DNA of 64,000 nucleotides from Phycisphaerales bacterium (GCA_016742075.1 JACVCL010000003.1:20087-84086); one strand, 5' to 3'. Shown: positions 5,165 to 33,086, counted from the first letter of the stretch. Translations and numbers: made by a program. The notes: generated by a model from the sequence alone, not told the origin.

Positions 5165-7366
5165 ATGAGCGGTTTGACGGCCCGGCAGGACGCGATGCGG
5201 AAGGTGGCGGCTTGGCATGAGACCGATCAGCCTTCGCTGACCAGCGAGGCGATCGAGCTGCCGCATCACTTCGGGCGCGATGTGTTCTCCGAGAAGGTGA
5301 TGCGGGAGCGGCTGCCCAAGGAGGTGTTCCGGGCGGTGCAGCGGACGCTGCGGCGAGGCGAGCGTCTGGATCGGTCGATCGCCGACACCGTGGCCAACGC
5401 GATGAAGGACTGGGCGCTGGAGCACGGGGCGACGCACTACACGCACTGGTTCCAGCCGCTGACGGGCTCGACGGCCGAGAAACACGACTCGTTCCTGTCT
5501 CCCGACGGCCTGGGCGGGGCGATCACGGAGTTCAGCGGGTCGCAGCTGGTGCAGGGCGAGCCTGACGCGTCGAGCTTCCCGTCGGGCGGCGTGCGGGCGA
5601 CGTTCGAGGCGCGCGGGTACACCGCGTGGGACCCGAGCAGCCCGGTGTTTCTGAGCCGCGGCCCCAACGCGATCACGCTGTGCATCCCGACGGCGTTCGT
5701 GAGCTACACGGGCGAGGCGCTGGACAAGAAGACCCCCCTGCTGCGTTCGATGGATGCGGTGAGCCAGCAGGCGCTGCGCGTGCTGAAGATCTTCGGCACC
5801 GACCGGGGCGTCGGGCGGGTGTTCAGCACGTGCGGGGCGGAGCAGGAGTACTTCCTGGTCGATCGGCGGTACTTCCTGGCTCGGGCCGACCTGCTGATGT
5901 GCGGGCGGACGCTCTTCGGGAGCAAGAGCCCCAAAGACCAGCAGCTGGAGGATCACTACTTCGGGGCGATCCCCGAGCGCGTGCAGGCCTTCATGGCCGC
6001 GTGTGAGGCCGAGCTGTACGCGCTGGGCGTGCCCGTGAAGACGCGGCATAACGAGGTGGCGCCGGCCCAGTTCGAGATCGCGCCGGTGTTCGAGAACGCG
6101 AACGTCGCTGCCGACCACCAGCAGGTGACAATGCAGGTGCTCAAGAAGCAGGCGCCGCGCTTCGGGCTGCAGTGCCTGCTGCACGAGAAGCCCTTTGCGG
6201 GGATCAACGGCTCGGGCAAGCACAACAACTGGTCGCTCTCGACCGACACCGGCGTGAACCTGCTGGACCCGGGCGACAACGCCCACGCGAACATGCAGTT
6301 CCTGGTGTTCCTGTGCGCCGTGATCCGGGCGGTGGACACGCACGCGGAACTGCTGAGGGCGAGCGTGGCCCACGCGGGCAACGATCACCGCCTGGGCGCC
6401 AACGAGGCGCCGCCGGCGATCATGTCGATCTTCCTGGGCGACATGCTTCAGGACATCGTGGAGCAGCTCGAGCAGGGCGCGCCGCGCTCGACCAAGAAGA
6501 AGGGCGTGCTGGAGCTGGGCGCGACGACCCTGCCGGCGCTGCCGAAGGACACCGGCGACCGGAACCGTACCTCGCCGTTCGCGTTCACGGGCAATAAGTT
6601 CGAGTTCCGGGCCGTGGGTTCGAGCCAGTCGATCGCGTGGCCGAACACGGTGCTGAACACGATCGTGGCCGACAGCCTCGACCACATGGCGACGGCGCTC
6701 GAGCGGGCGGTCGGCAAGCAACCGACGGACGCGAAGCTGATCGGCGCGGTGAAGAAGCTTCTGCAGCAGGTGATCAAGCAGCACAAGCGCGTGCTGTTCA
6801 ACGGCGACGGGTACAGCTCGGCGTGGCACCAGGAGGCGGCCAAGCGCGGGCTGCCGAACCATCGCAACGCGGTGGCGGCGCTGCCCGCGATCCGGAGCCG
6901 GCCCTCGCTGGCGCTGTTCGCGAAGTACAAGGTGCTCAGCAGGACCGAGATGGAGGCCCGCTGCGACGTGTACCTGGAGCAGTACGCCAAGACCGTGACA
7001 ATCGAGGGTCGCACGGCCGTGCAGATGGCGCGGACGCAGATCCTGCCCGCGGCCGTCCGCCACCAGACGGAACTGGCGCAGGCGGTGGCGGCGTGCCAGA
7101 CTGCCGGCGTGGACGCCGACGAACTGCGGGACGCGCTCGACGCCTATGGCGAACTCGTGACTCGCCTCCGCGAGACGGTCACCGCCGTCGACGAAGTGCT
7201 CGCTCACGAGGCCGGGCACGGCCCCGCCGAGCACGCCGAGTACCTGCGGGATCACCTGATGCCGGGCCTCACCGATCTGCGCGAGATCGTGGACGAGCTG
7301 GAGCGCCACACGGCCGACGACCTCTGGCCGCTGCCGACCTACCGCGAGATGCTGTTCGTCAAGTAG
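5165..7366 (+). CDS. glnN: Glutamine synthetase type III
   Basis: 733 aa, the GSIII size class. Motifs [24 protein letters not shown] and [20 protein letters not shown] are present. Confidence 0.9.
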
Positions 7367-7392
7367 AGGCGCTCACCACTCAGGCTTCGCCG

Positions 7393-7424
7393 CGGCCGCC
7401 CGCACCCCACGGGCGGCCGTTTCA
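7393..7424 (+). terminator. Rho-independent-type terminator between convergent glnN and the HAD gene (possibly bidirectional)
   Basis: Perfect 10-bp stem: cggccgcccg (7393-7402) pairs with cgggcggccg (7410-7419), with a 7-nt loop cacccca, followed by tttca. Confidence 0.6.
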
Positions 7425-7991
7425 TTCGCTGAAGACGCGGAGAACCCGTGCGGTGCGCTCGGCGGCGAGCCGCACCGAGGACCCGGGGGCGACGAGAATC
7501 GCCCCGCGCGCGGCCGCGAAGATCGGAAGATCGGCCCGGCTGTCTCCGGCGTAGTCGAAGACCGGCGGCGGTCCGGCGAAGCCGTGGGCCGCGGCGTCGG
7601 CCTGGATCGCCAGCAGCTTCCGGCGCCCCTTGAGGTTCACGGTGCCCGACGAGGCCAGCACGCCGGCGAAGAGCCCGAGATGCTCGGCGATCGGTCGGGC
7701 GAAGGCCTCATGGGCCGCCGTGGCGAGGACGACCCGCCGCCCGGCGGCCTGAACACGGAGGAACTCGACCAGCTGAGCGCGATAGGGCAGCGAGGCCGGG
7801 TCGATGCGCACGCGGTCGGCGATGGCGCTCTTGAATGCTGGCCGTCCTCTGGTCAGCGCCAGGGCGGGTCCCAGCAGGGTCCACGGCCGGCGTGTGAGCA
7901 GCCCCACGACGGCCGACCGCAGCGAATCGGCGGCGATCAGCGTGCCGTCGAGGTCGACGTAGAGCGGCGGCTCGGCCGAGGCCGGGGTCAT
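7422..7991 (-). CDS. HAD-IB family hydrolase (phosphatase)
   Basis: Only the C-terminal 189 aa of ORF 7422-9515 is protein-like. HAD motif I is YVDLDGTL and motif IV is GDSRADLP. The ATG at 7991 overlaps the upstream stop (ATGA 7988-7991). Confidence 0.8.
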   Translation of the reverse strand: MTPASAEPPLYVDLDGTLIAADSLRSAVVGLLTRRPWTLLGPALALTRGRPAFKSAIADRVRIDPASLPYRAQLVEFLRVQAAGRRVVLATAAHEAFARPIAEHLGLFAGVLASSGTVNLKGRRKLLAIQADAAAHGFAGPPPVFDYAGDSRADLPIFAAARGAILVAPGSSVRLAAERTARVLRVFSE

Positions 7992-9451
7992 GGGCCGATC
8001 GCCCCGGCGGAGCGGGCCGCTCGCCCCAAGAGCCTGGACCCCAAGAAAGCCGCCACTTCTTCGGCGAGGTACGCCGCGGCGAGGAACCAGATGCTCATCG
8101 CGGGCAGGGCGTAGCGAGACACCGGCACCAGCAGCAGGCAGTGCGCGGCCAGGAACGCGAAGGAACCGGCGATGAGCGTCACCATCGGCCAGCGGCGGCG
8201 CCAAGCCGAGACAGCCGCCGCGAGGACCGCGGCAATGAACAGCGGCACCTGCGGGATGCCGGACAGATGCTCGCCGACGGCGTCGAAGAGTCGCTGCAGC
8301 GGCCCGGCGTGGGGCGGCATCGCGAAGCGCGCGGCCTCGGGGAACAGACCGACGTTCTGGAAGTTGGGGGGCTGACGGCCGTCGCCCGCCATGCCCGGGC
8401 GTCGGAGCAGGAAGGTGAGCTCGTCGTACATCGGCGGATGGGCCGCATCGCCGGCGTGCAGCTGCCAGCGCAGGCTGTGCCAGACCGCCGCGGCGTAGGC
8501 CCCGGGGTGACGGGCGATCGATCGCCGGGCCCAGGCTCCGAGCTCGGCGGCGGCGAGGGGATCGGTGTGGGCGTTCGTCCGCCAGACGGCCTGCATAGCG
8601 TGCCAGTCTGAGGCGCCGGGAGCCAGAGCGTCGAGCGCCACCCGGCGGATGTCCGGGTTCACGCGGTCGTCGTCCCGATCGAGCAGGCTGTGCATCGCCG
8701 CGCCATAGAACAGCACCCAACCGGAACCACCAGCGATCGGCGGCCGCCCTCGCTGCATGTTGTGCCAGACCCATGGTCCGACGATGAGACAGCCGGCCGC
8801 GACGGCCGCGGCGGCTGGGCCCAATCGCTCCTTCCATGGGCCGGTCCGGCCGATGACCCAGGCGATCAGCATGAAGGGAACGACGGACTGAAGAGCCGGC
8901 CTGAGCATGACCGCCGAGCCCAGCAGCACGCCGAGAGCGGCGCCGGCGGCCCAGCCGGCTTTCCCGCGGCGTGTGGCTATAGCGGCGGCAGCGGCGATAC
9001 AGAAGAGCGTGGTGGTTTCGGTGAGGGCGTACGTCGCGAACAGCATCGACCATGGCTCGCACGCGGCCACAAGCCCTACCGCAAGACCGATCGACGGGCG
9101 TGACACCGCGCAGGCCGCCCGGGTGAGGCATGCCGTGGTGGCGACGGCGAGGACGTGCTGCACCAGCAGCACCCCGCCCGGGCCCGGGCCACAGAGCCAG
9201 AAAATGGCCGCGAGGATCGCGGGGTAGCCGGGCGTGCGATGATCCTGCATTCCCGGGGCCTGGCCTGAGAGCATGTTCGCGGCCGCGTTGAGGTACTCGC
9301 CGGAGTCGGGGGTCAGCACGAGCGGGCAGCCCGCGAGAAGCAGAGCGTGAACCGCGGCCGAGACCGTGCTCGCCAGCTGGACCGCCCGGCCGGCGGTCAG
9401 AAGTGGACGGGCGGACGACACGGCGGCTGCCGGTGCCGGGGGCGCGGTCAT
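7988..9451 (-). CDS. GT-C fold integral-membrane glycosyltransferase (ArnT/PMT/GT39- or GT83-like)
   Basis: 487 aa from ATG 9451. It has many hydrophobic segments, an early periplasmic-loop DSGEY motif and a large C-terminal soluble-looking domain. ATGA overlaps occur at both ends (9448-9451 and 7988-7991). The family call is from overall architecture only. Confidence 0.55.
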   Translation of the reverse strand: MTAPPAPAAAVSSARPLLTAGRAVQLASTVSAAVHALLLAGCPLVLTPDSGEYLNAAANMLSGQAPGMQDHRTPGYPAILAAIFWLCGPGPGGVLLVQHVLAVATTACLTRAACAVSRPSIGLAVGLVAACEPWSMLFATYALTETTTLFCIAAAAAIATRRGKAGWAAGAALGVLLGSAVMLRPALQSVVPFMLIAWVIGRTGPWKERLGPAAAAVAAGCLIVGPWVWHNMQRGRPPIAGGSGWVLFYGAAMHSLLDRDDDRVNPDIRRVALDALAPGASDWHAMQAVWRTNAHTDPLAAAELGAWARRSIARHPGAYAAAVWHSLRWQLHAGDAAHPPMYDELTFLLRRPGMAGDGRQPPNFQNVGLFPEAARFAMPPHAGPLQRLFDAVGEHLSGIPQVPLFIAAVLAAAVSAWRRRWPMVTLIAGSFAFLAAHCLLLVPVSRYALPAMSIWFLAAAYLAEEVAAFLGSRLLGRAARSAGAIGP

Positions 9452-10422
9452 GGAGCCCCCCCAGGTGGCCGGGCGATGCCCGGCGCCATGACGGACCGGA
9501 ACCACGGCAGGTCAATGAACGTGAGGGCGGTCATCGCCACAGCGCAGACGAGGCAGGCGGCCATGAGCGTCGGCTCGCGGTAGAGCTTCTCGGGGGCCTG
9601 CACGGCCGAGTCGCGCTGGTAGGCGAGCTTGAAGTACACCGCCATGACGACGGCGACGAGGGGGAATGACAGGACCAGCTCAAGGCGGTAGCGCATGATG
9701 AAGGCGCCGAAAAACAGCATCGAGGCCGCGGCGTGGAAGATGATTGAGACCAGCAGCCGCTGCTCGTTGTAGTGGGCGAAGGAGCGGCGGTAGGCGGCTG
9801 CGCGGGAGGGATCGCCGATCTCGCGGAACTCCGCGAACCGCTTGATAGCCATGAAGTAGCACCCGACGAACCAGTAGCTGAGCAGCAGCGAGGCCGGCGG
9901 GAGCAGCCAGGATGATCGGTCCGACGCGGCGAGCACCATCGACCAGCCGGCGACCAGGCGGAGCGGGTTGTTGACGCTCTCGCTGAGGACATCGAGGTAC
10001 GGCAGATCCTTCGTGCGGACCGGGGGGATGTTGTAGACGCAGCCCATGAGCCACAGGGCGGCCATGGTGGCCGCCAGCATCGGCGAGACAGCCCAAGCGA
10101 GAGCCATGCCCACGGCCATCAGCAGCAGCCATTGGGCGTAGGCGAGACGGATGCTCACGCGCCCGGAAGACACCGGGCGTGTGTGCTTGGTGGGGTGCAG
10201 CCGGTCGAACGGCGCGTCGAGAATCTCGTTAATGGTGTAGTTGCTCGAGGCGATGAGGCAGACCGAGGCCAGGCCGAGAAGCACGGGAGGGAGCGCTGCA
10301 AGTGCATCGGCCGCCGGCAGGATGGCGACGGCGAGCAGGCAGCCGGGAAGAACGAACACATTCTTGACCCAGTGATCGGCCCGGGCGATGGCCAGATGCG
10401 CGCGGAGGGAAGGACGGCTCAT
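9448..10422 (-). CDS. UbiA-family prenyltransferase, polyprenyl-phosphate phosphoribosyltransferase (DPPR synthase)-like
   Basis: 324 aa from ATG 10422. It has HWVKNVFVLPG, then N-EIL-D-APF-D-RLHPTKHTRPVSSG (NxxxDxxxD followed by R-x-HP-x-K-x-x-RP). From memory this is the signature of the Rv3806c-type subfamily. The protein is polytopic. Confidence 0.7.
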   Translation of the reverse strand: MSRPSLRAHLAIARADHWVKNVFVLPGCLLAVAILPAADALAALPPVLLGLASVCLIASSNYTINEILDAPFDRLHPTKHTRPVSSGRVSIRLAYAQWLLLMAVGMALAWAVSPMLAATMAALWLMGCVYNIPPVRTKDLPYLDVLSESVNNPLRLVAGWSMVLAASDRSSWLLPPASLLLSYWFVGCYFMAIKRFAEFREIGDPSRAAAYRRSFAHYNEQRLLVSIIFHAAASMLFFGAFIMRYRLELVLSFPLVAVVMAVYFKLAYQRDSAVQAPEKLYREPTLMAACLVCAVAMTALTFIDLPWFRSVMAPGIARPPGGAP

Positions 10423-11390
10423 CGCACCCTGCCTTCCGCGGCGTCGGGGGGCGGGTCGCGCAGGGCGAGAACGACGACCCACGAGTCGAACAGGTTGAGC
10501 GGCACGATCCGTCGCCGCAGCCAGCGCAGGGGCGGCACCCGCTCACAGAAGCGGTTGAGCCGGCCGATGGGTGCGTAGCGTTCCATACGCTCGGCAAGAT
10601 ACGACACGGGGAAGAACCACCGGGCCCGGAAGGCGTCGACGCGGACCAACCCGGCCCGCTCCGCCGCCCGGGTGAGGTTCGACAGGTCGAAGTATCCCAC
10701 GTGGGCGAGGCGGTAGTGCCACCACCGGCGGCGGAGCATGCGGGCGGCGAGGCTGGCGGCGTCGGGCGTGACGACGATCATCCGGCCGCCGTGGGCCAGG
10801 GCACCGGCGGCCTGACGGAGGAGTGCAACCGGGTCGGCCACGTGCTCGATGACGTCGACCAGGGTCACGAGATCGAACCGACGGCCGGCGGTGGCCGGGT
10901 GGGGGTAAAGCCCCTGGTGGAGGGCGATGCCGTGGAGCCGGCTCGCGGCCTCGACCAACGACCGCGAGGGCTCGACCCCTTCGGCCCGCAGTCCGGCCGC
11001 CGCGGCCTCGGCGGCCAGCAGGCCGGCCCCGGCGCCGATATCGAGCAGGGACGTTGCGCCCGGGTGCGCCAGGCGGGAGGCGGCGACGATCCAGCGCATC
11101 TGCAGACGGCGGGATTGCTGCGTGATCTCGTACTCGGGATCCTCGAGACGCTCGTAGAGCGATACCAGCTCCTGAATCTCGGACCCGGCGGCGAAGATGA
11201 ACCGGCATGTGCCGCAGCGGAAGAGCGTCAGGGTGACTCCGTAACGGGAGTCGGTGACACGGAAGTCTTCGGGCGCCAGCGCCCGGTCGATGCCTCTGGT
11301 CCGGAACAGCGGTGCGCCCGCGGCGCCGCAGACGGGGCACGGGCGATCGGCCGCGGCGGAAGGATGAGGTGCTGGGACGGGCGGGGGCAT
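10419..11390 (-). CDS. Class I SAM-dependent methyltransferase with N-terminal Cys4 zinc-ribbon
   Basis: 323 aa from ATG 11390. It has CPVCG...CGTC, then SAM motif I LLDIGAGAGLL and VDVIEHV. The stop overlaps the UbiA start (ATGA 10419-10422). Confidence 0.75.
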   Translation of the reverse strand: MPPPVPAPHPSAAADRPCPVCGAAGAPLFRTRGIDRALAPEDFRVTDSRYGVTLTLFRCGTCRFIFAAGSEIQELVSLYERLEDPEYEITQQSRRLQMRWIVAASRLAHPGATSLLDIGAGAGLLAAEAAAAGLRAEGVEPSRSLVEAASRLHGIALHQGLYPHPATAGRRFDLVTLVDVIEHVADPVALLRQAAGALAHGGRMIVVTPDAASLAARMLRRRWWHYRLAHVGYFDLSNLTRAAERAGLVRVDAFRARWFFPVSYLAERMERYAPIGRLNRFCERVPPLRWLRRRIVPLNLFDSWVVVLALRDPPPDAAEGRVR

Positions 11391-11428
11391 CGCTCGTCCA
11401 GAGTATCGGCCGGCGGCCGGGCGGGCGA

Positions 11429-12550
11429 TCACCGGACTCTGCTGATGATCGCCGCCGCCGCCGCGACCAGGAGAAGGGCGGTGAGCACCGCCAGCGCGAT
11501 CTTGATCCAGCTGTAGGGCCGCTCGCCGACCACTTCGCCGGTCCGGGCGTTCACGAGCACCCGGTAGATGCGATTGTTGTAGCGGTACGCGCTGATCCAA
11601 ATGGGGAGCAGGATGTGCTTGAAGGTGATGTCGGCGTACGCGGTGCGGAGCGAGCTGATGCGCTGCTCATCGCCGCCGATGTCGCGGAGGATCGCGGATC
11701 GGATCGGCTCTTCCATACGCTGGCGGGCCTCGGTGAAGCCGTCGGCGAGGCCGATCTGGTAGCTCTCGGCCCGGAACCCGGCCAGATACGCGTCGTCGTA
11801 GGGCACGAGCTGGTTGAGATCCCACGGCACGAGCTGGTCGACCATCGGCTCGGGAAGCGACCGCGTGGCCGGGACCAGCACGTTGTCGAAATGCAGCCGG
11901 ACGCGGCCGGAAGCGGGGTACCAGCGGGTCCGCCGTTCGCGCCGCCGGTTGTTGCCGCTGCCGACGGTGACCCAGTAGTGCTCGCCACGCTCACCCGTGT
12001 AGGCCGTGGAGGTGTTGCAGTCGTAGGTCCAATGCGGGGTGTACATTCCCTGCGGCGGCTGCTCGCGCGACCAGCGGCTCTTGAGGTTGCCCGGTGCGAA
12101 CCAGCGCGACCGCACCCAGTCGGCAAGGGCCCGGGCGGCCTGCTCGGCTGAGAGGTGGAACGGCAGCAGGCTCCTGGGCTTGATCTGCCGCGTGCAGACC
12201 GACTGCGCCACGATGTTTGAACCGCAGAACGGGCACGAGAGGCTGGTCACACCCGGGGCGATGACGGGCTCGGCGCCGCAGGCTTGGCACTTGATGGTGG
12301 TCCGCTCCAGCTGCTCGCCGGTTCGCTCGATCTCCCGAAGGTAGCCGAGGTAGTCGAGCTCCTCGATGGGCGCGTCGGACCTGGGAATAGGGTTGCTTGC
12401 GCCGCAGTACGGGCACGAGAGTGACTCGGCGCCGGGGGTGAACTCGAGCCGGGCGCCGCAGGCCTTGCACGGGAACGTAGCCGGGCCGGGGGTGCTCGGC
12501 CCGGCGGACAGGGGCGGTGGTTCGGCGGCGGTGGGTTCGGGCGGGCTCAT
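11429..12550 (-). CDS. Double zinc-ribbon membrane protein (YdjG-like)
   Basis: 373 aa. It has two ribbons (CKACG...CPYCG and CQACG...CPFCG), a central domain of about 250 aa, and a C-terminal TM helix IKIALAVLTALLLVAAAAAII. Confidence 0.65.
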   Translation of the reverse strand: MSPPEPTAAEPPPLSAGPSTPGPATFPCKACGARLEFTPGAESLSCPYCGASNPIPRSDAPIEELDYLGYLREIERTGEQLERTTIKCQACGAEPVIAPGVTSLSCPFCGSNIVAQSVCTRQIKPRSLLPFHLSAEQAARALADWVRSRWFAPGNLKSRWSREQPPQGMYTPHWTYDCNTSTAYTGERGEHYWVTVGSGNNRRRERRTRWYPASGRVRLHFDNVLVPATRSLPEPMVDQLVPWDLNQLVPYDDAYLAGFRAESYQIGLADGFTEARQRMEEPIRSAILRDIGGDEQRISSLRTAYADITFKHILLPIWISAYRYNNRIYRVLVNARTGEVVGERPYSWIKIALAVLTALLLVAAAAAIISRVR

Positions 12551-12583
12551 CGGGAGGAGCGGTGACTTCGGCCGCGGGCCGGG

Positions 12584-13684
12584 TCACGGCTTGGGGGGCA
12601 GCGGCGGCGGGGCGCTGGAGAACAGTTGGGCGAGCTCCATCACCTGCCCGGCCTTTTGCCAGTCGACCATCCCCTGCCGCCAGGCGAGGGTGTCACGGGT
12701 GAGCGTGCCCGCCGCGACCTGAGCGCGGAGCCCGTTGAGGTCGAAGGGCCCCTGCTGCTGGCCGTTGACGCCCAGGTAGAACTGAGCCGACTGGGGCAGC
12801 GGCGGCGGCGCGGCGCCGCCGGGGCCTGCACCCTGCTGCATGGCCTGGCCCATCGTCCCGGCCATGCCGAAGCCCATGCCCATGGCGATGGTGGAGCCGG
12901 CGCCGCCCGGGTTCTTGGCGGCCTGCTCGATCGCTTGGGCGGTCTGGTACTGCGCGTAGGCGTTCAGGTTGCCGATGATGCCCATGCTGCTCCGCTTGTC
13001 GAGGGCCTGCTCGACCTCGGGCGGGAGCGAAATGTTCTCGATCAGGAGCTTGGCGAGCTCGATGCCGTAGGCATCGAACTCGGGCTGGATGCGCTTGTGG
13101 ATGAACTCGGCGAGCTGGTCGTAGTTCGCGGCGAGATCGAGGATCGGGATCCCCGCCTCGCCGAGCGTGTCGCTGAAGCGTGCCACGATCACGTTGCGGA
13201 GCTGGCTGACGAACTCGTCGGTGGTGAAGCGAGAGTCGGTGCCGGCGACGTTTTTGACGAGGGCGCCGGGGTCCTTGACGCGCATGGCGTAGGTGCCGAA
13301 GGCGCGCAGCCGCACCGGCCCGAACTCGGGGTCGCGGCGCATCACCGGGTTCATCGTGCCCCATTTGAGGTCGGTGAACTGGCGGGTGCTGACGAAGTAC
13401 ACCTCGGCCTTGAAGGGGGACTCGAAGCCGTATTTCCAGCCGAGAATCGTGGCCAGGATGGGGAGGTTCCGGGTCTCGAGCATGTAGGTGCCGGGGGCGA
13501 AGACGTCGGCGAGCCGGCCCTCGTTGACGAAGACGGCCGCCTGACTCTCCCGCACCACCAGCTTGGCGCCGTACTTGATCTCGTTGTTGTACCGCTCGAA
13601 CCGGTGGACGATGGTGTTCTGTGAATCATCCAGCCACTGGATGATGTCGATCAACTCGCCCTTGAGCTTGTCCCAGATGCTCAT
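12584..13684 (-). CDS. SPFH/band-7 domain protein with C-terminal GYF_2 domain (YdjI-like)
   Basis: 366 aa from ATG 13684, with a GGAGG 8 nt upstream. MSIWDKLKGELIDIIQW...VVRESQAAVFVNEG is typical of the COG4260-type SPFH family. The C-terminal FYLGVNGQQQGPF...LAWRQGMVDWQKAGQV matches a GYF_2 domain. Confidence 0.75.
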   Translation of the reverse strand: MSIWDKLKGELIDIIQWLDDSQNTIVHRFERYNNEIKYGAKLVVRESQAAVFVNEGRLADVFAPGTYMLETRNLPILATILGWKYGFESPFKAEVYFVSTRQFTDLKWGTMNPVMRRDPEFGPVRLRAFGTYAMRVKDPGALVKNVAGTDSRFTTDEFVSQLRNVIVARFSDTLGEAGIPILDLAANYDQLAEFIHKRIQPEFDAYGIELAKLLIENISLPPEVEQALDKRSSMGIIGNLNAYAQYQTAQAIEQAAKNPGGAGSTIAMGMGFGMAGTMGQAMQQGAGPGGAAPPPLPQSAQFYLGVNGQQQGPFDLNGLRAQVAAGTLTRDTLAWRQGMVDWQKAGQVMELAQLFSSAPPPLPPKP

Positions 13685-13797
13685 GATCGAACCTCCGTGG
13701 CCGGCCCCGCCGCGGCGGGGCTGACGAATAAGTGTACCGGCAGAGGCCGCCGGCGCGGACGCCCGCACCCCATTGTTCGGAGGGGCGTGCGCGGGTT

Positions 13798-14109
13798 TCA
13801 GGGCACCGGCAGAAGGGCCGACGAGGGCTGCTCCCGCAGGGCCGTCAGGTCGAACCGGACGGGGGTTGCCGTGCCGTTCGTCCCGATCAGGAAGTAGGTG
13901 CCGCGGGATTCCACGAGCGCCACCGAGCCGGTCGGCAGCGCGAGCGCCGGGAATCGCTTCTCGAGCGTGATCACCGCCTTGTCGGTGCCCCGCTCGGCCT
14001 GGGCCGTCGCGGGCCCGGGGCGTAGGAGCACGCCGATCGTCAAACCGATCAGAACCAGACCCACAGCAGCGAGAACGGAAGGCCAGTGCAGCGTGCGACG
14101 AGTCTCCAT
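13798..14109 (-). CDS. Small membrane-anchored hypothetical protein
   Basis: 103 aa from ATG 14109 (METRRTLHWPSVLAAVGLVLIGLTIGVLL). It has a single N-terminal TM helix. No family recognised. Confidence 0.45.
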   Translation of the reverse strand: METRRTLHWPSVLAAVGLVLIGLTIGVLLRPGPATAQAERGTDKAVITLEKRFPALALPTGSVALVESRGTYFLIGTNGTATPVRFDLTALREQPSSALLPVP

Positions 14110-14177
14110 GGGGCTCACCTTTCCGGGCCTGTTGAATCGCAGGCCCCTTTCGGCTGGTTCATACCGCCGGGCGCGGG

Positions 14178-14984
14178 CTACGGCGCCCCGGGAAGGGGCT
14201 CGAGCCACCCGGGCTCGATCTCGGTGCATCCCCGGGCGGAGGTGTCGAACATCACGGCGTTGAACGACCCTGTGAGGCCGTTGTTGGGCGTCGGCTGACT
14301 CGGCTTGAACGTGCCCCGATGGAATCGGCCGAGCCGCTGGGCCACGTGCGCGGCCTGGCGGAAGTCGAGCACCGAGCTGGCCCGAGTGGGCGGCGGAGCG
14401 CCCGGCGTGGGGCCCGAGCCGGCGACGTCGGCGAGAGACCCGTCGACGATCATCGGCGTGGCGGCGGGCCGGGTCACGCGGTCGATTCGCACGGCGACCG
14501 GCGCGGTCCCGGGCGGTAGCGCGGCATCGTAGTTGCCACGATCGCCAGGGAGGCCGGCCAGACCGGTGGCGTTGGCGGCGTAGGTCCGCGTCATGTCGCG
14601 CCCGTAGTGCCGGGACGCCGACGGGCAGACGAGCACCGAGTCGCGGGTGAGGAGCTCGCCGGCGGTGGTGCCCCCCCGGTCGGCGTACGACTGGACGACG
14701 AGCGCCCAGTTGGGGAGCGTGGTGTAGGGCTGGCCGACGGCCGGGCCCGTGCCGCGGGAGTCGCCAGCGTAAAGGGTGCAGGCGATCGCGGACTGGCGGA
14801 GGTTCGAGAGACAGATCGCCGATCGCGCGGCCTCTCTCGTGGAGGCCATGGTGGGCAGCAGCACCGCCAGCAGCACGCCGATCACGGCCACGACCACCAG
14901 AATCTCGACGAGCGTGAAGGCGCCCTGCAGAGCGCCGCTGGCGCGGGCGGGATGATCCCCATCGGATGGACGGACTCCGTACAC
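14178..14984 (-). CDS. Prepilin-type N-terminal cleavage/methylation domain protein (DUF1559-like, degenerate H-X9-DG)
   Basis: It has ALQGA|FTLVEILVVVAVIGVLLAVLLP followed by SNLRQ. The C-terminal NAVMFDTS resembles the DG end of the H-X9-DG motif but with DT and a longer spacer. Confidence 0.7.
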   Translation of the reverse strand: MYGVRPSDGDHPARASGALQGAFTLVEILVVVAVIGVLLAVLLPTMASTREAARSAICLSNLRQSAIACTLYAGDSRGTGPAVGQPYTTLPNWALVVQSYADRGGTTAGELLTRDSVLVCPSASRHYGRDMTRTYAANATGLAGLPGDRGNYDAALPPGTAPVAVRIDRVTRPAATPMIVDGSLADVAGSGPTPGAPPPTRASSVLDFRQAAHVAQRLGRFHRGTFKPSQPTPNNGLTGSFNAVMFDTSARGCTEIEPGWLEPLPGAP

Positions 14985-17828: not shown

Positions 17829-19052
17829 TCACTTGGCCATGGTGTTCGCGACGCTGAAGATCGGCAGGAGCAGCGAGATCGCGATGCCCCCGATGGTCGT
17901 GCCCATGAAGATGATCATCACCGGCTCGATGAGCTGCGTGGCCGCCTTCACGGCTTCGTCGAGGTCTTCCTCGCTCGACTGGCCGATGCGCTCCAGAACA
18001 TCCGGCAGCCGCCCGGATCGCTCGCCGGCGGCGATCATCTGGCTCACGCTCCGGGGCACGATGGCCGATCGGGCAAAGGCCTCGGAGATCGGCCGTCCGA
18101 CCGTCATGGCCTTGTCTACGGTGTCCCAGAGCTCATCCCAGAGGACGTTCTCGGTGACGCCGCGGACGATGCGCACGGCGTCGAGGAGCGGCACGCCCGC
18201 GGCGAGCAGCGTGCCGAGGGTGCGCGTGGCACGCGTCAGGTAGAACATCGTGTACATACGGCCGAGGACGGGCAGGCTGATCTTGGCGCGGTCGATGAGG
18301 CGTCGGCCCGATCTCATCATCCGCAGGCCCAGCGTGCCGCCCACGACCGCCGCGATGCCCGCAACAACGGGCACCCAGTGGGCGAGCAGGAACTCGGAGA
18401 CGCCGAGGACGATGCGAGTGGGCGTGGGGAGCGCCGCCGAGCGCGACTCGTAGATCCGCGCGAACCTCGGCAGCACCCACATGACGAGAAACAGCGTGAC
18501 CACCGTGGCCAGCGAGACCATCACCAGGGGGTAGGTCATCGCCCCCTTGATCTGCTTGATCGTTCGCCGCTCCTTGGAGAGGTAGCCTGCGACGCGCGCG
18601 AGCATGAGACCCAGCTTCCCCGACGCCTCGCTGGCCCGGATGAGCGACACCATGAGGGTCGGGAACACCCGCGGAAACTGCCGCATGGCCTCGGAGAAGG
18701 GCACGCCGGCGTGGATACGGTCGGTGAGCACACCCATCACCCGCTTCATCGGGCCCGGACGGAGCTGGTCGAGATAGGCCTCGAGGGCCTCGGCGAGCGG
18801 CACGCCGGTGTCGAGCATCACCGCCAGCTGGTTGGCCATGCCGATGACCTCATCCCGGCGAACCGTGCGAGCGGCCTGACGCACCAGCACCTGCGACGCG
18901 TCGACCGCCGGACGGGCCCCGAGGAGGACCTCGGTGACGACCTTGCCCTCACGCTGCAGCGTGCGGACGACGTCGGACTGGGAGCGGGCCTCGAGCGTGC
19001 CGCTCACCTGGTTGCCGGCGGGGTCTCTGGCTTTGTAGGAGAACGTGAGCAT
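17829..19052 (-). CDS. pilC: Type IV pilus / type II secretion platform protein (GspF/PilC family)
   Basis: 407 aa from ATG 19052. It begins MLTFSYKARDPAGNQVSG and has two repeats of the T2SSF domain. It ends GGIAISLLLPIF. Confidence 0.85.
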   Translation of the reverse strand: MLTFSYKARDPAGNQVSGTLEARSQSDVVRTLQREGKVVTEVLLGARPAVDASQVLVRQAARTVRRDEVIGMANQLAVMLDTGVPLAEALEAYLDQLRPGPMKRVMGVLTDRIHAGVPFSEAMRQFPRVFPTLMVSLIRASEASGKLGLMLARVAGYLSKERRTIKQIKGAMTYPLVMVSLATVVTLFLVMWVLPRFARIYESRSAALPTPTRIVLGVSEFLLAHWVPVVAGIAAVVGGTLGLRMMRSGRRLIDRAKISLPVLGRMYTMFYLTRATRTLGTLLAAGVPLLDAVRIVRGVTENVLWDELWDTVDKAMTVGRPISEAFARSAIVPRSVSQMIAAGERSGRLPDVLERIGQSSEEDLDEAVKAATQLIEPVMIIFMGTTIGGIAISLLLPIFSVANTMAK

Positions 19053-19068
19053 GGGAGTCGGGTTGGGG

Positions 19069-20811
19069 TCAGGTGGAGGAAGCCCTGATGACTTCGTCGA
19101 CGGTGGTGAGGCCGACAGCAGCCTTGGCCAGCCCGTCATCGCGGAGCCCCTTGTGGCCGATGACGTTGGCGAGCGTGCGGAGCTCCTGCAGGGTGGCCCC
19201 ACCGGAGATCTGCTCGAGGACGGCCTCGGTGGGGACGAACAACTCGAAGATGCCCAGCCGGCCCGCGTAGCCCGACGCACGGCACCGGGCGCAGCCGGCG
19301 CCCCGGAAGAGCCGCGTGATCGCGCTCGCCGCGGACTCGACCGTGACACGCTCCTGAGTATCCGGCTCGTACTCTTCCTTGCAGTGCGGACAGATCTTGC
19401 GCACCAGGCGCTGGGCGAGGACGCCGCGGAGCATCGCGGCCACAAGATACGGCTCGATGCCCATGTTCGTCAGGCGTGTAACGGCCGAGATGGCGTCGTT
19501 CGTGTGCAGGGTCGAAAGGATCAGGTGACCCGTGAGTGCGGCCTGCGTGGCGATCGTGGCCGTCTCGAGATCGCGCACCTCACCGACCATGAGCACGTCG
19601 GGATCCTGACGCAGAAGCGCCCGCAGGGCCGAGGCGAACGTGAACCCGGCTTTGTCGTTGACCTGGAACTGGTTGACACCCGGGATCTGCGCCTCGACCG
19701 GGTTCTCGACAGTCGAGATGTTGATGTCGTCGGAGGAAATCTCCATGAGCGCCGAGTAGAGGGTCGTCGACTTGCCGGATCCGGTCGGGCCGGTGACGAG
19801 CACCATGCCATTCGACATATTGATGAGCTTCCGCCACGTGCCCACCATCTCGGGCCGCATGCCCATTTTCTCGATGGTCAGGATGGCGTTGCGATTATCG
19901 ATGATGCGGATGACGACCTTCTCGCCGAACTTGCCCGGCATGGTCGAGACGCGGAGGTCCACGGGCCGACCGTCGATGGCCACGTGGATGTCGCCGTCCT
20001 GCGGCAGCCGGCGTTCGGAGATGTCCATCGACGCCATGATCTTGATGCGCGACACCACCGCCGGGAGCATCTGATGCGGCGGCATGAGCTTGGTCGCCAG
20101 GCGGCCATCGACGCGGAACCGCACACGGCAACGGTGGTCCTCGGGCTCGATGTGGATGTCGGATGCGCGATCCTGGATAGCCTGGTAGAAGATGTAGTTA
20201 ACGAGCTTGACGACCGGCGACTGGCCCGAGAGTTCCTCGATGTCGCCGAGGTCGAACGACTGCTTCTCGCTGACCTTGAACTCCCGGACGTCGACATTCT
20301 CGTAGATGTCGTCGATGACGAATACATTCGCGGTCGGCAGGTACGCCTGCAGCGTGGCGCGGATGTCCTGGGCCGTTGACACCACCACCTGCGCTCGGCA
20401 GCCCGAGAGACGCTCGATCTCTTCGACGAGGAACAGGTTGGCCGGCTCGCACACCGCCACCGTGAGACTTCCCTCGACGCAGAACAGCGGCAGCACGCAG
20501 TGGCTGTCGATGAACTCACGTGGCAGACGGTCGATGACGCGCGGGTCGGCGATACGCGGCGTCACCCGGGCGAACGGGACGCCATAGGACGCCGCGAGGC
20601 ATTCCATGATCACGGCTTCGCTGACGAATCCGAGCTCGACCAGCACCTCGCCCAGCAGCTTGCTGTGGCCGTGCGACGTCTGGGCTTCCAGCGCCTCGGC
20701 GAGCTGTTCCCGGGTGATGCGTCCCTGCCGGACGAGCAGCTCGCCGATCGGCAGGCGGGCCGCTGTCGAAGCCGAAGCGGCCGAGCCGGGCTGTCCCACG
20801 GGCGGGCTCAT
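19069..20811 (-). CDS. pilB: Type IV pilus / type II secretion assembly ATPase (GspE/PilB family)
   Basis: 580 aa from ATG 20811. It has an N-terminal T2SSE_N-like region, Walker A GPTGSGKST, an Asp box, Walker B, and a tetra-Cys CPHC...CARC. The ATG overlaps the STAS stop (ATGA 20808-20811). Confidence 0.9.
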   Translation of the reverse strand: MSPPVGQPGSAASASTAARLPIGELLVRQGRITREQLAEALEAQTSHGHSKLLGEVLVELGFVSEAVIMECLAASYGVPFARVTPRIADPRVIDRLPREFIDSHCVLPLFCVEGSLTVAVCEPANLFLVEEIERLSGCRAQVVVSTAQDIRATLQAYLPTANVFVIDDIYENVDVREFKVSEKQSFDLGDIEELSGQSPVVKLVNYIFYQAIQDRASDIHIEPEDHRCRVRFRVDGRLATKLMPPHQMLPAVVSRIKIMASMDISERRLPQDGDIHVAIDGRPVDLRVSTMPGKFGEKVVIRIIDNRNAILTIEKMGMRPEMVGTWRKLINMSNGMVLVTGPTGSGKSTTLYSALMEISSDDINISTVENPVEAQIPGVNQFQVNDKAGFTFASALRALLRQDPDVLMVGEVRDLETATIATQAALTGHLILSTLHTNDAISAVTRLTNMGIEPYLVAAMLRGVLAQRLVRKICPHCKEEYEPDTQERVTVESAASAITRLFRGAGCARCRASGYAGRLGIFELFVPTEAVLEQISGGATLQELRTLANVIGHKGLRDDGLAKAAVGLTTVDEVIRASST

Positions 20812-21143
20812 CGCAGGCTCCTCACGGCGTGCTCCACCGTCGGGTGCGACTCGAGCGCGAGCTCCAGCCGCGTGAGTGCCAGGATGGTGCTCACGGTCGT
20901 GTCCGGGCTGATGAGCCGGAGCTGCCCGCCCGACTCGCCGAGGGACCGCTGGAGCCGCAGGCACGACTCGAGCGCGGCCGAGTCGATGAACTCCAGATGC
21001 TCGACATTCAGCAGAAGGTGCCGGGCCGACTTGGCCCGGCGCTCGGTGGCCGCACGCTCAAAGCCGGAGATATCGTCGGCCGTGAACTCTCCCGACAGCG
21101 TCAGCACGCCGATGTGCTCGAAGTCGTGGGCCGAGATCTTCAC
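20808..21143 (-). CDS. STAS domain protein (anti-sigma-factor antagonist family)
   Basis: 111 aa with a GTG start overlapping the upstream stop (GTGA 21140-21143). HLEFIDSAALESCL keeps the SpoIIAA-type phosphorylatable Ser context. Confidence 0.75.
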   Translation of the reverse strand: MKISAHDFEHIGVLTLSGEFTADDISGFERAATERRAKSARHLLLNVEHLEFIDSAALESCLRLQRSLGESGGQLRLISPDTTVSTILALTRLELALESHPTVEHAVRSLR

Positions 21144-22780: not shown

Positions 22781-23205
22781 GCCGCACGGGCCTCCTCGTG
22801 GCCGTCGTGTTCGCCCTCACCGGCAAGCCCGAGCAGCACCTGGACCCGCTGGAGGATCTGCCTGGGGCTGAAGGGCTTGGAGAGCACGGCCTTGATGTTG
22901 GTCCGGTCCAGGTCGCTCTGAGCCAGCGCGTACCCGCGGGCGGTGAGCATGATGAGCGGGATCCCGGCGGTCGCCGGGTTCTGCCGCAGCTTCACGCCAA
23001 GCTCAAGGCCCGAGACGTACGGCATCTGCAGATCGGTGATAATCAGCGCCGGCAGACTCTGGCACGCGAGCTCGAAGGCCTCCTCCCCATCGCCCGCCAT
23101 CTGCACGTCGAAGCCGGCATTGGAGAGCTTCAGCGACACCACCTGCACGATGTGTGCTTCGTCATCGGCCACGAGGACCTTGATCCGGTTGGGCTGCGCG
23201 GTCAT
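22777..23205 (-). CDS. Single-domain response regulator (CheY-like receiver)
   Basis: 142 aa. It has VLVADDE ... LIITDLQMP ... KPF. ATGA overlap with the kinase stop (23202-23205). Confidence 0.85.
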   Translation of the reverse strand: MTAQPNRIKVLVADDEAHIVQVVSLKLSNAGFDVQMAGDGEEAFELACQSLPALIITDLQMPYVSGLELGVKLRQNPATAGIPLIMLTARGYALAQSDLDRTNIKAVLSKPFSPRQILQRVQVLLGLAGEGEHDGHEEARAA

Positions 23206-24668: not shown

Positions 24669-24717
24669 GCTCCTCCGGAATGCCCCGCCCAAGGGCCGGG
24701 GCGTCCGACTCTGGGCG

Positions 24718-28154: not shown

Positions 28155-28210
28155 GGGTCTTCTCCGCCGAGCAAGGCCTTGATCGGCCCCTCTCGCTCCT
28201 GTGCTGCGGT

Positions 28211-28840
28211 CTACCGCTCCGGAAGCTCGCGCTTGAGCTCCACGCGGAATCCGTCCTTCTCGAGCACCACGCTGAGTTCGCTGACCTCGACCAGCGTGAG
28301 CCCGTCCACCGATTCACCCGGACGCAAGACGAAGTTCCGGCGGTCGGACCGTCCGACCTGATCGACAACCGCCATCGGCGTTCGGCCGAGCATCGTGCTC
28401 CGGAGACGCAGCTTGGACGCCTGTTCCCGGACACGCTTCTCCGCCGCCGCACGTTCGCGGCCTCTCACAACCTCTGGGTCTTCGGCGGTTTCCGACTGTG
28501 ACTTCTGGGCAACTCCCGCCGACTGCGGCATCTCCACCGGCCGCGGAAACGTCACCTCGTTCACCAGGAACAAGTTGCGCGTCAGCTCCGCCGGGCGCGG
28601 CACCCGGATGATGGGGCGTCCTGCCGCGGCCGCGGCCGCGGCCGCGGCCAGGCCGGCCGCAGGGGCGGCATCGGGCTGCCCCGCGGCACGTCGATCGCGG
28701 GCCTGGGCCGAACCGATGCCGCCCGAGAGCACCGTCCGCAGGCCAAGCAGAGTCAAGGCCAGGAGCAGCACCCCCAGGACGGCGGACTTCTTTCGGTCAG
28801 CGTTCAGGATGATCCACAGCTCGGCTAGGCGCGTGCTCAT
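28211..28840 (-). CDS. PilP/GspC-like inner-membrane-anchored protein
   Basis: It has an N-terminal TM helix and a low-complexity Ala linker. The C-terminal beta-domain is FVLRPGESVDGLTLVEVSELSVVLEKDG. ATGA overlap with the pilO stop (28837-28840). Confidence 0.5.
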   Translation of the reverse strand: MSTRLAELWIILNADRKKSAVLGVLLLALTLLGLRTVLSGGIGSAQARDRRAAGQPDAAPAAGLAAAAAAAAAGRPIIRVPRPAELTRNLFLVNEVTFPRPVEMPQSAGVAQKSQSETAEDPEVVRGRERAAAEKRVREQASKLRLRSTMLGRTPMAVVDQVGRSDRRNFVLRPGESVDGLTLVEVSELSVVLEKDGFRVELKRELPER

Positions 28841-29421: not shown

Positions 29422-29423
29422 GG

Positions 29424-31300: not shown

Positions 31301-31359
31301 TCAGATCTCCCGTTGTGGATCGATCCCCGGCGCCCGCTTCGGGAGCCCGCGCCCGCCGC

Positions 31360-31968: not shown

Positions 31969-31996
31969 GATCGGATCAACCCCTTGCACCCGGCGG

Positions 31997-32341: not shown

Positions 32342-32486
32342 GACTGGCTGCTCCCGCGTTGCGGTCCCGAGCGGCCCGGCGCCACGCGCGCGGCATCCGC
32401 CCGGGGCGTCATCGGCCATCCCGCCGAGCCTCCTGAGCACAACCCCCCGAATCGCCGGGCGGCACGCCGGGTCGGCGGCGCCGCCA

Positions 32487-32501: not shown

Positions 32502-32502
32502 G

Positions 32503-33059: not shown

Positions 33060-33086
33060 AGGGCGAAATTCCGTTATCCCCGGCTG

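Follow-up and report, generated by a model that had tools for sequence, protein, structure and literature searches.

The locus described here raises the question of whether four adjoining genes of a Phycisphaerales bacterium make up a route from PRPP to a lipid-linked pentofuranose, and which sugar such a route would deliver. Until 2024 the route was known in mycobacteria only, and since then one enterobacterial system has been shown experimentally. In the work of Kelly et al. (PNAS 2024, PMC11127046) a fusion of a HAD phosphatase with a UbiA phosphoribosyltransferase gives undecaprenyl-P-ribofuranose, and a GT-C enzyme transfers the sugar outside the membrane. The system of Citrobacter youngae O1/O2 comprises ORF15, in which a phosphoribose-phosphatase (PRP) is joined to a polyprenyl-phosphate 5-phosphoribosyltransferase (PPPRS), together with ORF14 (MATE) and ORF12 (GT-C, GT136); ORF15 makes farnesyl-P-Ribf from PRPP in vitro, ORF12 transfers Ribf, and the ribofuranose route is described as widespread (PMC11127046). 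The original prediction for our locus had taken the polyprenyl-P-ribofuranose route to be uncharacterised, a view that the C. youngae biochemistry has overtaken.

We analysed the locus within a stretch of 64,000 nucleotides, which we refer to as the window. In our reading the operon is probably a stand-alone module through which a glycan of the cell surface receives a pentofuranose outside the cytoplasmic membrane.

Layout of the operon

The four genes lie in line on the minus strand. The first encodes a zinc-ribbon class I SAM-dependent methyltransferase (MT; 10419-11390, 323 aa), called from ORF read-through and a Methyltransf_23 match. It is followed by the genes for a UbiA-fold, PPPRS-like protein (9448-10422, 324 aa; PF01040), a GT-C fold glycosyltransferase (7988-9451, 487 aa with about 10 TM segments; called from its fold and a sub-threshold PMT_2 match) and a HAD-IB-type phosphatase (7422-7991, 189 aa; PF12710). 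All four frames read through cleanly from an ATG start to a TGA stop, and successive genes meet in ATGA junctions at 10419-10422 (MT/UbiA), 9448-9451 (UbiA/GT-C) and 7988-7991 (GT-C/HAD), the GT-C gene being translationally coupled to its neighbours on either side. GC3 is 0.85-0.88 in each gene, which is coding-like and near the values of the adjacent genes. The shared strand and the three overlaps are as originally reported. Four-base start/stop overlaps also occur in at least five other same-strand gene pairs in the ORF list of this genome; as they are frequent there, they mark an operon but nothing exceptional.

The public annotation gives the same starts as ours for MT (323 aa) and UbiA (324 aa) and has the GT-C protein start 30 nt further downstream, at a GTG (477 aa), leaving a 26-nt gap instead of the UbiA/GT-C overlap. 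The aligned N-termini of three homologues match the ATG start, and the MTPASA with which the HAD protein begins also opens a Phycisphaerales orthologue. Past the HAD stop codon, in the gap to the convergently oriented gene for type III glutamine synthetase, lies a G+C-rich hairpin (7394-7418, strand not assigned) with an 11-bp stem and −28.1 kcal/mol. It is possibly a bidirectional terminator, and hence the 3′ end of the operon, although the evidence is weak because its z-score against shuffles is only −1.48, no better than shuffled sequence. A promoter and terminator scan gave nothing informative, and an Rfam search of 7000-14500 returned no matches.

Directly upstream on the same strand, a gene for a zinc-ribbon/TM protein (11429-12550) was rejected as an operon member, as it has no counterpart in 86 related loci. 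The gene for an SPFH-GYF protein (12584-13768), also upstream on this strand, was weighed as a member and is not counted in the system.

The UbiA-fold protein and the HAD phosphatase

The UbiA protein contains both peptides quoted in the original prediction, DHWVKNVFVLPG and NEILDAPFDRLHPTKHTRPVSSG, and matches PF01040 in Pfam. Among NCBIfam models it scores highest on NF008977 (DPPR synthase, 93.8 bits) and NF006088 (HAD-UbiA fusion, 92.4 bits); it reaches 55 bits as a generic prenyltransferase, 45 bits as a haem O synthase and 23-24 bits only on 4-hydroxybenzoate prenyltransferase models. All curated DPPR-synthase cut-offs lie higher than its scores (NF008977 93.8/234, NF008978 76.4/207 and NF008976 74.7/474 bits). 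Given 93.8 against 234 bits, the protein appears to belong to a large sister clade and not to the mycobacterial DPPR-synthase family proper.

The closest solved structure is that of Rv3806c (8j8j, E = 4.9e-14), and 10 of the 12 residues by which Rv3806c contacts PRPP are identical or conservatively replaced. R22, K28, Y70, N73 and D77 of Rv3806c correspond to R14, K20, Y62, N65 and D69, and K87, R90, Y138, K143 and K208 to K79, R82, Y130, R136 and R213; most of these ten counterparts are invariant across 31 clade members. Counterparts of Q135 and Y157 are missing (G127 and N152 here), and D74 of the NDxxD motif is replaced by glutamate; the NExxDxxxD motif is present. According to the Rv3806c structure paper, the phosphoribose sites of that enzyme are not conserved in other UbiA enzymes. 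In a neighbour-joining tree that included a partial Rv3806c and AfUbiA, the clade fell apart from E. coli UbiA, MenA and CyoE, and beside rather than within the DPPR-synthase group, with supports of about 50-80% that do not resolve its relative position. The assignment rests on profile scores and active-site residues, not on this tree. These support a predicted PPPRS rather than a quinone, haem or chlorophyll prenyltransferase, as had been proposed, while the proposed DPPR-synthase type holds for profile, solved structure and PRPP contacts and gives way to a sister clade at the curated cut-offs. By homology and conserved residues, the enzyme would transfer ribose-5-phosphate from PRPP to polyprenyl phosphate at the cytoplasmic face, in a site where N65, D69 and D73 would bind Mg2+/PRPP, R14, K79, R82 and R136 would form a lysine/arginine cluster, and K20 and Y62 would contact the 5′-phosphate.

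A HAD, not a PAP2, phosphatase had been named as partner, and this is borne out. The HAD protein scores 165.6 bits (E = 1.6e-48) on the N-terminal half of NF006088, its DLDGT, LATA, NLKG..K and GDSRAD motifs line up with those in the HAD part of a genuine NF006088 fusion, and there is no PAP2 phosphatase among the window ORFs; a sequence search against PDB chains gave no match. Profile and motifs support reading it as a stand-alone counterpart of the PRP domain, with D13 in DLDGT as the predicted nucleophile, and it would strip the 5-phosphate to leave polyprenyl-P-ribofuranose. NF006088 (PRK08238) describes both domains on one polypeptide at 351 bits or more, and here there are two genes with the GT-C gene between them. 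A split phosphatase is noted once in PMC11127046, in a phage; no match to the UbiA protein came from a tblastn search of phage genomes.

Many close relatives of the HAD protein are themselves fusions. Among the closest 149, 57 are 450-530 aa long; the PPPRS motif is present in 54 of the 59 close relatives of at least 450 aa, and all five tested at about 480-510 aa are HAD-UbiA fusions. One relative of 966 aa is a GT87(GT-C)-HAD-UbiA fusion, and in another, of 621 aa, HAD is fused to a 7-TM protein that carries a GT-C-like DGLEY/RSPGYP motif. Judged by their domains, such proteins appear to link the HAD, UbiA and GT-C activities.

The UbiA clade takes in at least 584 species-level genomes and 5,955 proteins at E <= 1e-10, mainly from soil (and freshwater) phyla. 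Across 81 loci of UbiA relatives (54-66% identity) a HAD gene, from either of two different HAD subfamilies, is adjacent in 35, and 59 have a large multi-TM gene no more than 1.5 kb away. PMT_2 is matched by 31 of 69 such multi-TM proteins, and the neighbourhoods are dominated by GT-C genes. Other phyla have the four-gene set as well, with the HAD gene in another place. Alphaproteobacterial relatives (40% identity) lie in UbiA-HAD-GtrA operons. Two independently recruited phosphatase lineages, the GT-C-HAD-UbiA fusions and the GT-C neighbours together give the predicted function a degree of support that is unusual for an uncultured lineage.

The same evidence bears on a different reading, in which a prenylated-aromatic (quinone-like) pathway would have the UbiA protein as its genuine prenyltransferase and MT as an O- or C-methyltransferase resembling UbiG/UbiE. 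JGI names for many homologues are “4-hydroxybenzoate polyprenyltransferase” and “2-polyprenyl-...-benzoquinol methylase,” and UbiG is the best sequence-level match of MT in the PDB and NCBIfam (E = 8e-8), at 47.4 bits on TIGR01983 against a cut-off of 102.95. We regard this reading as highly improbable, given the gap between 23-24 and 94 bits in the UbiA profiles, the conserved PRPP 5′-phosphate contacts, a phosphatase partner homologous to the PPPRS-fused domain, the existence of GT-C-HAD-UbiA fusions, the GT-C genes that dominate the neighbourhoods, and a full-length MT fold that is nearer to sugar methyltransferases than to UbiG.

The glycosyltransferase and the donor sugar

The GT-C protein matches PMT_2 of Pfam at 20.8 bits, below the cut-off of 26.1, and found no match in a sequence search against PDB chains. 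Its AF2 model (pLDDT 75, pTM 0.78) is wholly helical, and the top 34 Foldseek matches in the PDB are nearly all GT-C enzymes, three being a GPI-transamidase subunit (chain U). ArnT leads (5f15, E = 1.3e-4), followed by AglB and AftB, with Pmt1/2 and AftD also among the top matches. The modelled fold supports the one GT-C enzyme that had been predicted for the operon. Six GT-C homologues conserve the loop D49-S-G-E52-Y53 that follows TM1 and, towards the C-terminus, R446-Y447. In pattern and position only, D49/E52/Y53 and R446-Y447 recall residues of ORF12 of CAZy family GT136, in which the D31/E34/Y35 loop, H106 and R349/Y350 are essential; the C-terminal beta-rich carbohydrate-binding module of ORF12 is absent from the 487-aa all-helical model. 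No UbiA gene adjoins the closest GT-C orthologue (46% identity), so the link to UbiA holds at the level of the enzyme class and not of the orthologue. From its fold and gene linkage, this ArnT-like enzyme would pass the sugar to the acceptor.

The operon resembles the C. youngae system in combining a predicted PRPP-dependent UbiA-fold synthase, a HAD-family 5-phosphatase and an ArnT-like GT-C enzyme, and in having ribofuranose as the default sugar where there is no epimerase. It differs in that the phosphatase has a gene of its own, which follows that of the GT-C enzyme, a conserved zinc-ribbon MT is added, the setting is among housekeeping genes and not in an O-antigen locus, and the UbiA protein is of another clade, found mainly in soil phyla. 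Although the PPPRS, HAD PRP and GT-C of the three-component system all have candidates in the window, a dedicated MATE or SMR flippase is absent from both the locus and the 64 kb. Of the 46 window ORFs, none matched MatE, SMR, GtrA, Polysacc_synt or LPG_synthase_TM, and the four ORFs of the 64 kb with at least three TM segments encode the GT-C protein, the UbiA protein, a T2SS F protein and a histidine kinase. A flippase encoded outside the window would carry the donor across the membrane.

With the mycobacterial DPA pathway (Rv3806c, Rv3807c, DprE1/DprE2, Emb/Aft) the operon would share the first committed reaction, the enzyme fold, most PRPP contacts and the use of GT-C enzymes outside the membrane, AftB being among the fold matches of the window GT-C. 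It differs in having a HAD and not a PAP2 phosphatase, in the absence of DprE1/DprE2 from the window, and in UbiA scores far under the equivalog cut-offs. Gtr-type O-antigen glucosylation (GtrA, GtrB, Gtr* GT-C) similarly relies on a lipid-monophosphate sugar donor that is synthesised inside and then flipped for use by a GT-C enzyme, but its donor synthase is a GT2 enzyme with a UDP-sugar, whereas ours is predicted to be PRPP-dependent and UbiA-fold, and there is no GtrA here. Pilin arabinofuranosylation in Pseudomonas aeruginosa PA7/Pa5196 involves TfpW, a DPPR-synthase homologue and DprE1/E2 homologues (PMC11127046). It is alike in pairing a PPPRS with a GT-C enzyme in a Gram-negative, and the window also holds pilus/prepilin-like genes; it is unlike in that the window has no epimerases and its GT-C gene is apart from the pilin genes, with unrelated genes between.

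In the same window, 3-25 kb from the operon, are prepilin-like genes and a cluster of type IV pilus/T2SS-like character, which is why pilin was considered as the acceptor. This reading was rejected for want of support: the operon does not adjoin those genes, and the related loci are glycan-type.

Domains of the FAD_binding_4/ALO, adh_short and Epimerase types (DprE1/DprE2-type or other) occur in none of the 46 ORFs of the 64-kb window, which agrees with the original statement on DprE1/E2-like genes and is compatible with a ribofuranose donor. It is unlikely that the same pathway goes on to convert the lipid-linked ribose to arabinofuranose or xylofuranose by way of DprE1/DprE2-like enzymes or an ORF13-like SDR encoded elsewhere. 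In published systems the pentose is set by epimerases and the GT-C enzyme is promiscuous for Ribf and Xylf (PMC11127046); some related loci carry an NAD-dependent epimerase (7), SDR (6) or flavin oxidoreductase (9) gene 3-5 kb from UbiA; and the 64 kb examined are part of a contig of about 103 kb in an incomplete MAG, so that an epimerase could sit outside. Set against this are the empty count in the window, the habit of characterised and candidate systems of keeping the epimerase inside the locus, and the tightness of the four-gene unit, which is flanked by housekeeping genes (trpA, type III glutamine synthetase, adenylate kinase and recJ). As there is no local epimerase, the transferred sugar is most likely ribofuranose or methylated ribofuranose, and the carrier is presumably undecaprenyl rather than decaprenyl. 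The evidence that speaks against the predicted pathway includes the sub-cut-off UbiA scores, the missing Q135/Y157 counterparts, the glutamate in place of D74 in NDxxD, the weakly supported placement of the clade beside the DPPR-synthase group, the closest GT-C orthologue lying apart from any UbiA gene, and the lack of a flippase in the window.

The methyltransferase partner

MT matches Methyltransf_23 of Pfam (E = 2.3e-25), with neither Methyltransf_13 nor Methyltransf_14 at E <= 0.01, and its cysteines C18, C21, C59 and C62 form a conserved CxxC...CxxC. The best full-length Foldseek matches of its AF2 model (pLDDT 91.5) are the sugar C3-methyltransferases MtmC, KijD1 and TcaB9 (E = 8.6e-15 to 1e-11, TMq 0.55-0.62, 312-338 columns). 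MT shares with them an N-terminal four-cysteine zinc ribbon, a class I SAM domain and a C-terminal domain, but identity is only 17-20% and MT is some 80-100 residues shorter. TcaB9, KijD1 and MtmC use an NDP-4-keto-sugar substrate. O-methylation is the more plausible for MT, because these three enzymes need a 4-keto sugar and the window has no oxidase able to make one.

MT is an accessory gene whose association with this UbiA clade is conserved. UbiA is also present in 21 of the 26 informative metagenome loci of the MT orthologue (81%) and is immediately adjacent in 14 of these 21, most commonly in the order HAD-MT-UbiA-membrane protein. Myxococcales and a deltaproteobacterium have MT-UbiA-membrane protein with overlapping stops and starts. 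The indications for the substrate of MT are linkage and fold, and on these grounds it would methylate the lipid-linked sugar before this leaves the cytoplasmic side.

Alternatively, MT could act elsewhere, on an acceptor glycan in cytoplasmic assembly or on an unrelated small molecule, and the donor would be plain polyprenyl-P-ribofuranose. Methyltransferases are common passengers of glycan loci, other Methyltransf_23 genes are present in the related loci L005 and L091, and an MT orthologue is found in only about 10% of UbiA-clade loci (8-10 of 81), so MT is not needed for the core reaction. We consider such a role elsewhere rather unlikely, since the linkage is specific and reciprocal, the coupling is usually translational and is kept across at least 4-5 phyla while adjacent glycan genes vary, and the fold is that of enzymes methylating a sugar on a phosphate-linked carrier. 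The MT module may yield a methylated pentofuranose donor. We propose tentatively, as a possibility, that MT, PPPRS and phosphatase together make a methylated pentofuranosyl-phosphopolyprenol, methylated on the cytoplasmic face before the flip and the transfer by GT-C.

Relative to the published systems, the split phosphatase and the conserved MT partner are new. The clade occurs predominantly in soil and freshwater phyla, and the tightly linked MT offers a testable extension of the pathway to a methylated furanose donor. If true, this would be donor-level tailoring without a described precedent in any polyprenyl-monophosphate sugar pathway, and a methylated-donor route working without a MATE or SMR flippase would be spread over Planctomycetota, Acidobacteriota, Myxococcota and Verrucomicrobiota.

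The four-gene operon and its surroundings

The operon comprises four minus-strand open reading frames, each with an ATG start and a TGA stop: a zinc-ribbon SAM methyltransferase (MT, 10419-11390), a UbiA protein (9448-10422), a GT-C glycosyltransferase (7988-9451) and a HAD phosphatase (7422-7991). This is the arrangement described in the original prediction, with ATGA on the minus strand at all three junctions, and both of the peptide motifs it cited are found in the translated sequence. Four-base overlaps are common across this genome, so the three junctions mean an operon and nothing rarer. The GC3 of the four genes is 0.85-0.88, which is coding-like and near the values of adjoining genes. 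The predicted starts of MT and UbiA are those of the public annotation, which begins the GT-C at a GTG 30 nt later than the predicted ATG; the N-termini of homologues support the ATG.

The flanking genes are housekeeping genes: downstream come trpA and the type III glutamine synthetase gene, the latter convergent with the operon, and upstream the genes for an SPFH-GYF protein, a zinc-ribbon protein, adenylate kinase and recJ. The two genes directly upstream encode a Band_7_1 SPFH protein (12584-13768, minus) that carries GYF_2 at its C-terminus and a 373-aa protein (11429-12550, minus) that has one TM segment at its C-terminal end and two zinc-ribbon-like motifs. Both are on the same strand as the operon with gaps of 33-38 bp, and a counterpart of the zinc-ribbon protein was found in none of 86 related loci. 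Between the convergent HAD and glutamine synthetase genes there is a perfect 9-bp inverted repeat (GGCCGCCCG / CGGGCGGCC) at 7394-7418, with a folding energy of -28 kcal/mol (z = -1.48) that is unexceptional at this G+C content.

A type IV pilus/T2SS-like cluster occupies 17829-33758 on the minus strand and includes T2SS-F (17829-19445), a T2SS-E ATPase with an MshEN domain (19069-20964), a secretin (25971-28154), PilN (29424-30119), PilM (30116-31300) and three N_methyl prepilin-like genes (31360-33758), while an HD-GYP-like protein, a response regulator, a PAS histidine kinase and a TPR protein are encoded inside it (21140-25974). Another prepilin-like gene is found outside it, at 14178-14984. 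The cluster and several prepilin-like genes are 3-25 kb from the operon, and no tie between these genes and the GT-C was seen. The window also encodes two very large, paralogous tricorn-like proteases of ~1,250 aa each (50243-53971, plus; 58208-62005, minus), with PD40 beta-propellers, Tricorn_C1, PDZ and Peptidase_S41 domains, and a minus-strand ORF with collagen triple-helix (G-X-Y) repeats and an unusually high second-position GC (0.64) that runs past the window edge (62015-64000).

The UbiA protein and its phosphatase

In Citrobacter youngae, ORF15 combines an N-terminal HAD phosphoribose phosphatase (PRP) domain with a UbiA-type polyprenyl-phosphate 5-phosphoribosyltransferase (PPPRS) domain, and generates farnesyl-P-ribofuranose from PRPP and farnesyl phosphate (Kelly et al., PNAS 2024, PMC11127046). 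The presumed flippase is a MATE protein, and in the periplasm the GT-C enzyme ORF12, founder of family GT136, attaches alpha-Ribf to the O antigen; the donor is converted to Xylf or Araf by an SDR epimerase or DprE1/E2 homologues (PMC11127046).

The UbiA protein of the window matches PF01040, and its top NCBIfam models are decaprenyl-phosphate phosphoribosyltransferase (DPPR synthase, NF008977, 93.8 bits) and the 482-residue HAD-UbiA fusion family NF006088 (92.4 bits), followed by a generic prenyltransferase (55 bits), haem O synthase (45) and 4-hydroxybenzoate prenyltransferases (~23); all of these scores are below the curated cut-offs of the respective models. Among solved structures, Rv3806c of M. 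tuberculosis is nearest (E = 4.9e-14). Aligning the two proteins and using the PRPP-bound structure (PMC10994848) allowed the PRPP contacts to be mapped: Rv3806c R22, K28, Y70, N73 and D77 correspond to R14, K20, Y62, N65 and D69, and K87, R90, Y138, K143 and K208 to K79, R82, Y130, R136 and R213. Only Q135 (G127 in the window protein) and Y157 (N152) differ, and most contact positions are invariant among 31 members of the UbiA clade. The phosphoribose-binding sites of Rv3806c are not common to other UbiA enzymes (PMC10994848), which makes K20 and Y62 diagnostic.

For a neighbour-joining tree we combined the window's clade with UbiA, MenA and CyoE of E. coli, PGAP-named DPPR synthases, a HAD-UbiA fusion from a related locus (L035) and partial Rv3806c and AfUbiA sequences. 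The window's clade groups, with weak support, with an alphaproteobacterial group (40% identity) in which the operons run UbiA-HAD-GtrA, and this grouping lies, again with weak support, beside the DPPR synthases and apart from the enzymes for quinones and haem. In this tree the clade thus does not cluster with the chlorophyll, haem O or menaquinone type, the outcome that the original prediction had named as evidence against itself. Cultured carriers include Nevskia soli (L056) and Rhizobium johnstonii 3841, whose UbiA-HAD-GtrA operon is on pRL10. The clade is very large: 5,955 proteins match at E <= 1e-10, at least 584 species genomes have a member, and identities of 54-66% extend across Acidobacteriota, Planctomycetota, Verrucomicrobiota, Gemmatimonadota, Myxococcota, Actinomycetota, Armatimonadota, Chloroflexota and others.

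The HAD protein matches PF12710 and, more tellingly, scores 165.6 bits against the N-terminal half of NF006088. Its motifs DLDGT, LATA, NLKG..K and GDxxADLP each line up with the HAD half of the L035 fusion, which exceeds the NF006088 cut-off and carries NDMLHVEADRRHPKKRYRP in its C-terminal half. An exhaustive HMMER search gave 149 closest relatives (40-55% identity), 57 of which are 450-530 residues long; the motif N[DE]xxDxxxDRxHxxK is present in 54 of the 59 relatives of at least 450 residues, and all five tested relatives of about 480-510 aa are HAD-UbiA fusions. One relative of 966 residues (P0322) is a GT87(GT-C)-HAD-UbiA protein in one chain, and in another of 621 residues (P0257) HAD is fused to a protein with seven TM segments and a GT-C-like DGLEY...RSPGYP motif. 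The GT-C, HAD and UbiA activities of the operon are thus joined in single polypeptides elsewhere. A plasmid of Rhodobacter sp. CZR27 (NZ_CP023549.1, locus L089, 5275-9427) encodes an 885-aa protein that matches NF006088 over residues 35-389 (275.8 bits) and continues for ~500 more residues, followed by a stand-alone second UbiA gene and a GtrA gene, giving two synthase-like domains in the locus.

Gene neighbourhoods, glycosyltransferase and transport

Across 81 non-redundant genome loci, a HAD gene adjoins UbiA in 35, of which 29 are of the HAD-IA type and six of the window's type; these two types imply that HAD phosphatases were recruited independently. Within 1.5 kb of UbiA, 59 of the 81 loci have a large multi-TM gene, and 31 of 69 such proteins match PMT_2, with several others matching other GT-C families. 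Among more distant relatives, DPPR synthases are found with GT-C genes on plasmids: a Legionella plasmid pairs one with a GT39 gene, and on Haloterrigena sp. KLK7 plasmid NZ_CP149788.1 (L177) a bona fide DPPR synthase is accompanied by two GT-C genes and by genes for an epimerase, a PHP-domain protein and an LPG_synthase_TM protein. The window's GT-C argues against strict synteny, as its closest orthologue (46% identity) adjoins another GT-C gene and no UbiA gene.

The GT-C has six close homologues and a single Pfam match, to PMT_2, which is sub-threshold. Its AlphaFold model (pLDDT 75, pTM 0.78) matches almost exclusively GT-C enzymes in the PDB, with ArnT first (E = 1.3e-4), then AglB, AftB, Pmt1/2 and AftD; the TM-scores are low (0.33-0.44), so the match backs the GT-C fold class and no specific family. 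A D49-S-G-E52-Y53 loop after TM1 and an R446-Y447 pair are conserved, and D49/E52/Y53 with R446-Y447 resemble, in pattern and position, the residues D31/E34/Y35 and R349/Y350 that are essential in the founder of GT136.

Our Pfam scan of 46 GC3-supported ORFs in the window identified no DprE1-type, SDR or NAD-epimerase genes and no MATE, SMR, GtrA or Wzx-type genes, and the only ORFs with at least three hydrophobic segments were the GT-C, UbiA, a T2SS F protein and a histidine kinase. The LPG_synthase_TM gene (MprF-like TM domain) that adjoins the phosphoribosyltransferase in the archaeal plasmid locus L177 has a counterpart beside UbiA in a Myxococcales locus (L090, 9666-10751), and such a protein could possibly be an alternative flippase for these systems.

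Taken together, homology, conserved residues, gene fusion and gene linkage suggest that the operon probably encodes a pathway in which the UbiA enzyme would form polyprenyl-P-Ribf-5-P from PRPP and polyprenyl-P, the HAD phosphatase would then take off the 5-phosphate, the donor would be flipped across the membrane by a protein not among the window ORFs, and the GT-C would use it on a periplasmic acceptor. The polyprenyl-P-ribofuranose route of the original prediction is supported, but it is not new, as the mechanism was published by Kelly et al. in 2024.

The methyltransferase and the published systems

The MT is a class I SAM enzyme by Pfam with four conserved cysteines. Its predicted model is confident (pLDDT 91.5) and the best full-length fold matches are the zinc-ribbon sugar C3-methyltransferases MtmC, KijD1 and TcaB9, while the nearest solved relative by sequence is UbiG. 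An MT orthologue adjoins UbiA in eight of the 81 loci. Conversely, in 26 metagenome loci with an MT orthologue and at least 1.2 kb on each side, UbiA was present in 21 (immediately adjacent in 14) and HAD in 18. The commonest gene order is HAD-MT-UbiA followed by a multi-TM protein of 420-606 aa; this membrane partner matches PMT_2 in two loci, is Wzx-like in one and matches no Pfam family in four. In Myxococcales and one deltaproteobacterium the order is MT-UbiA-membrane protein, with overlapping stops and starts as in the window. In one metagenome locus (L172, 4753-6135) a Polysacc_synt (Wzx/MOP-type) gene directly follows HAD-MT-UbiA, where other loci have a GT-C; its product would fit a flippase of the MOP family, comparable to the MATE protein in C. 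youngae.

Gene linkage and fold raise the tentative possibility that the MT methylates the lipid-linked sugar on the cytoplasmic side of the membrane. O-methylation would be more plausible than C-methylation because there is no oxidase present to form the keto group needed by TcaB9-type chemistry.

Kelly et al. called their system widespread, with MATE or SMR transporters and one phage case of a separate PRP, and mentioned neither a methyltransferase nor Planctomycetota (PMC11127046); our literature search found no description beyond that study and a commentary on it. In contrast to those systems the window encodes a split PRP after the GT-C, lacks a flippase in cis and has a compact GT-C that carries no carbohydrate-binding module, and its operon stands alone among housekeeping genes. 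The chief new point is the conserved MT partner, which defines an undescribed sub-type of these systems, and this sub-type occurs in phyla whose surface glycans are unknown.
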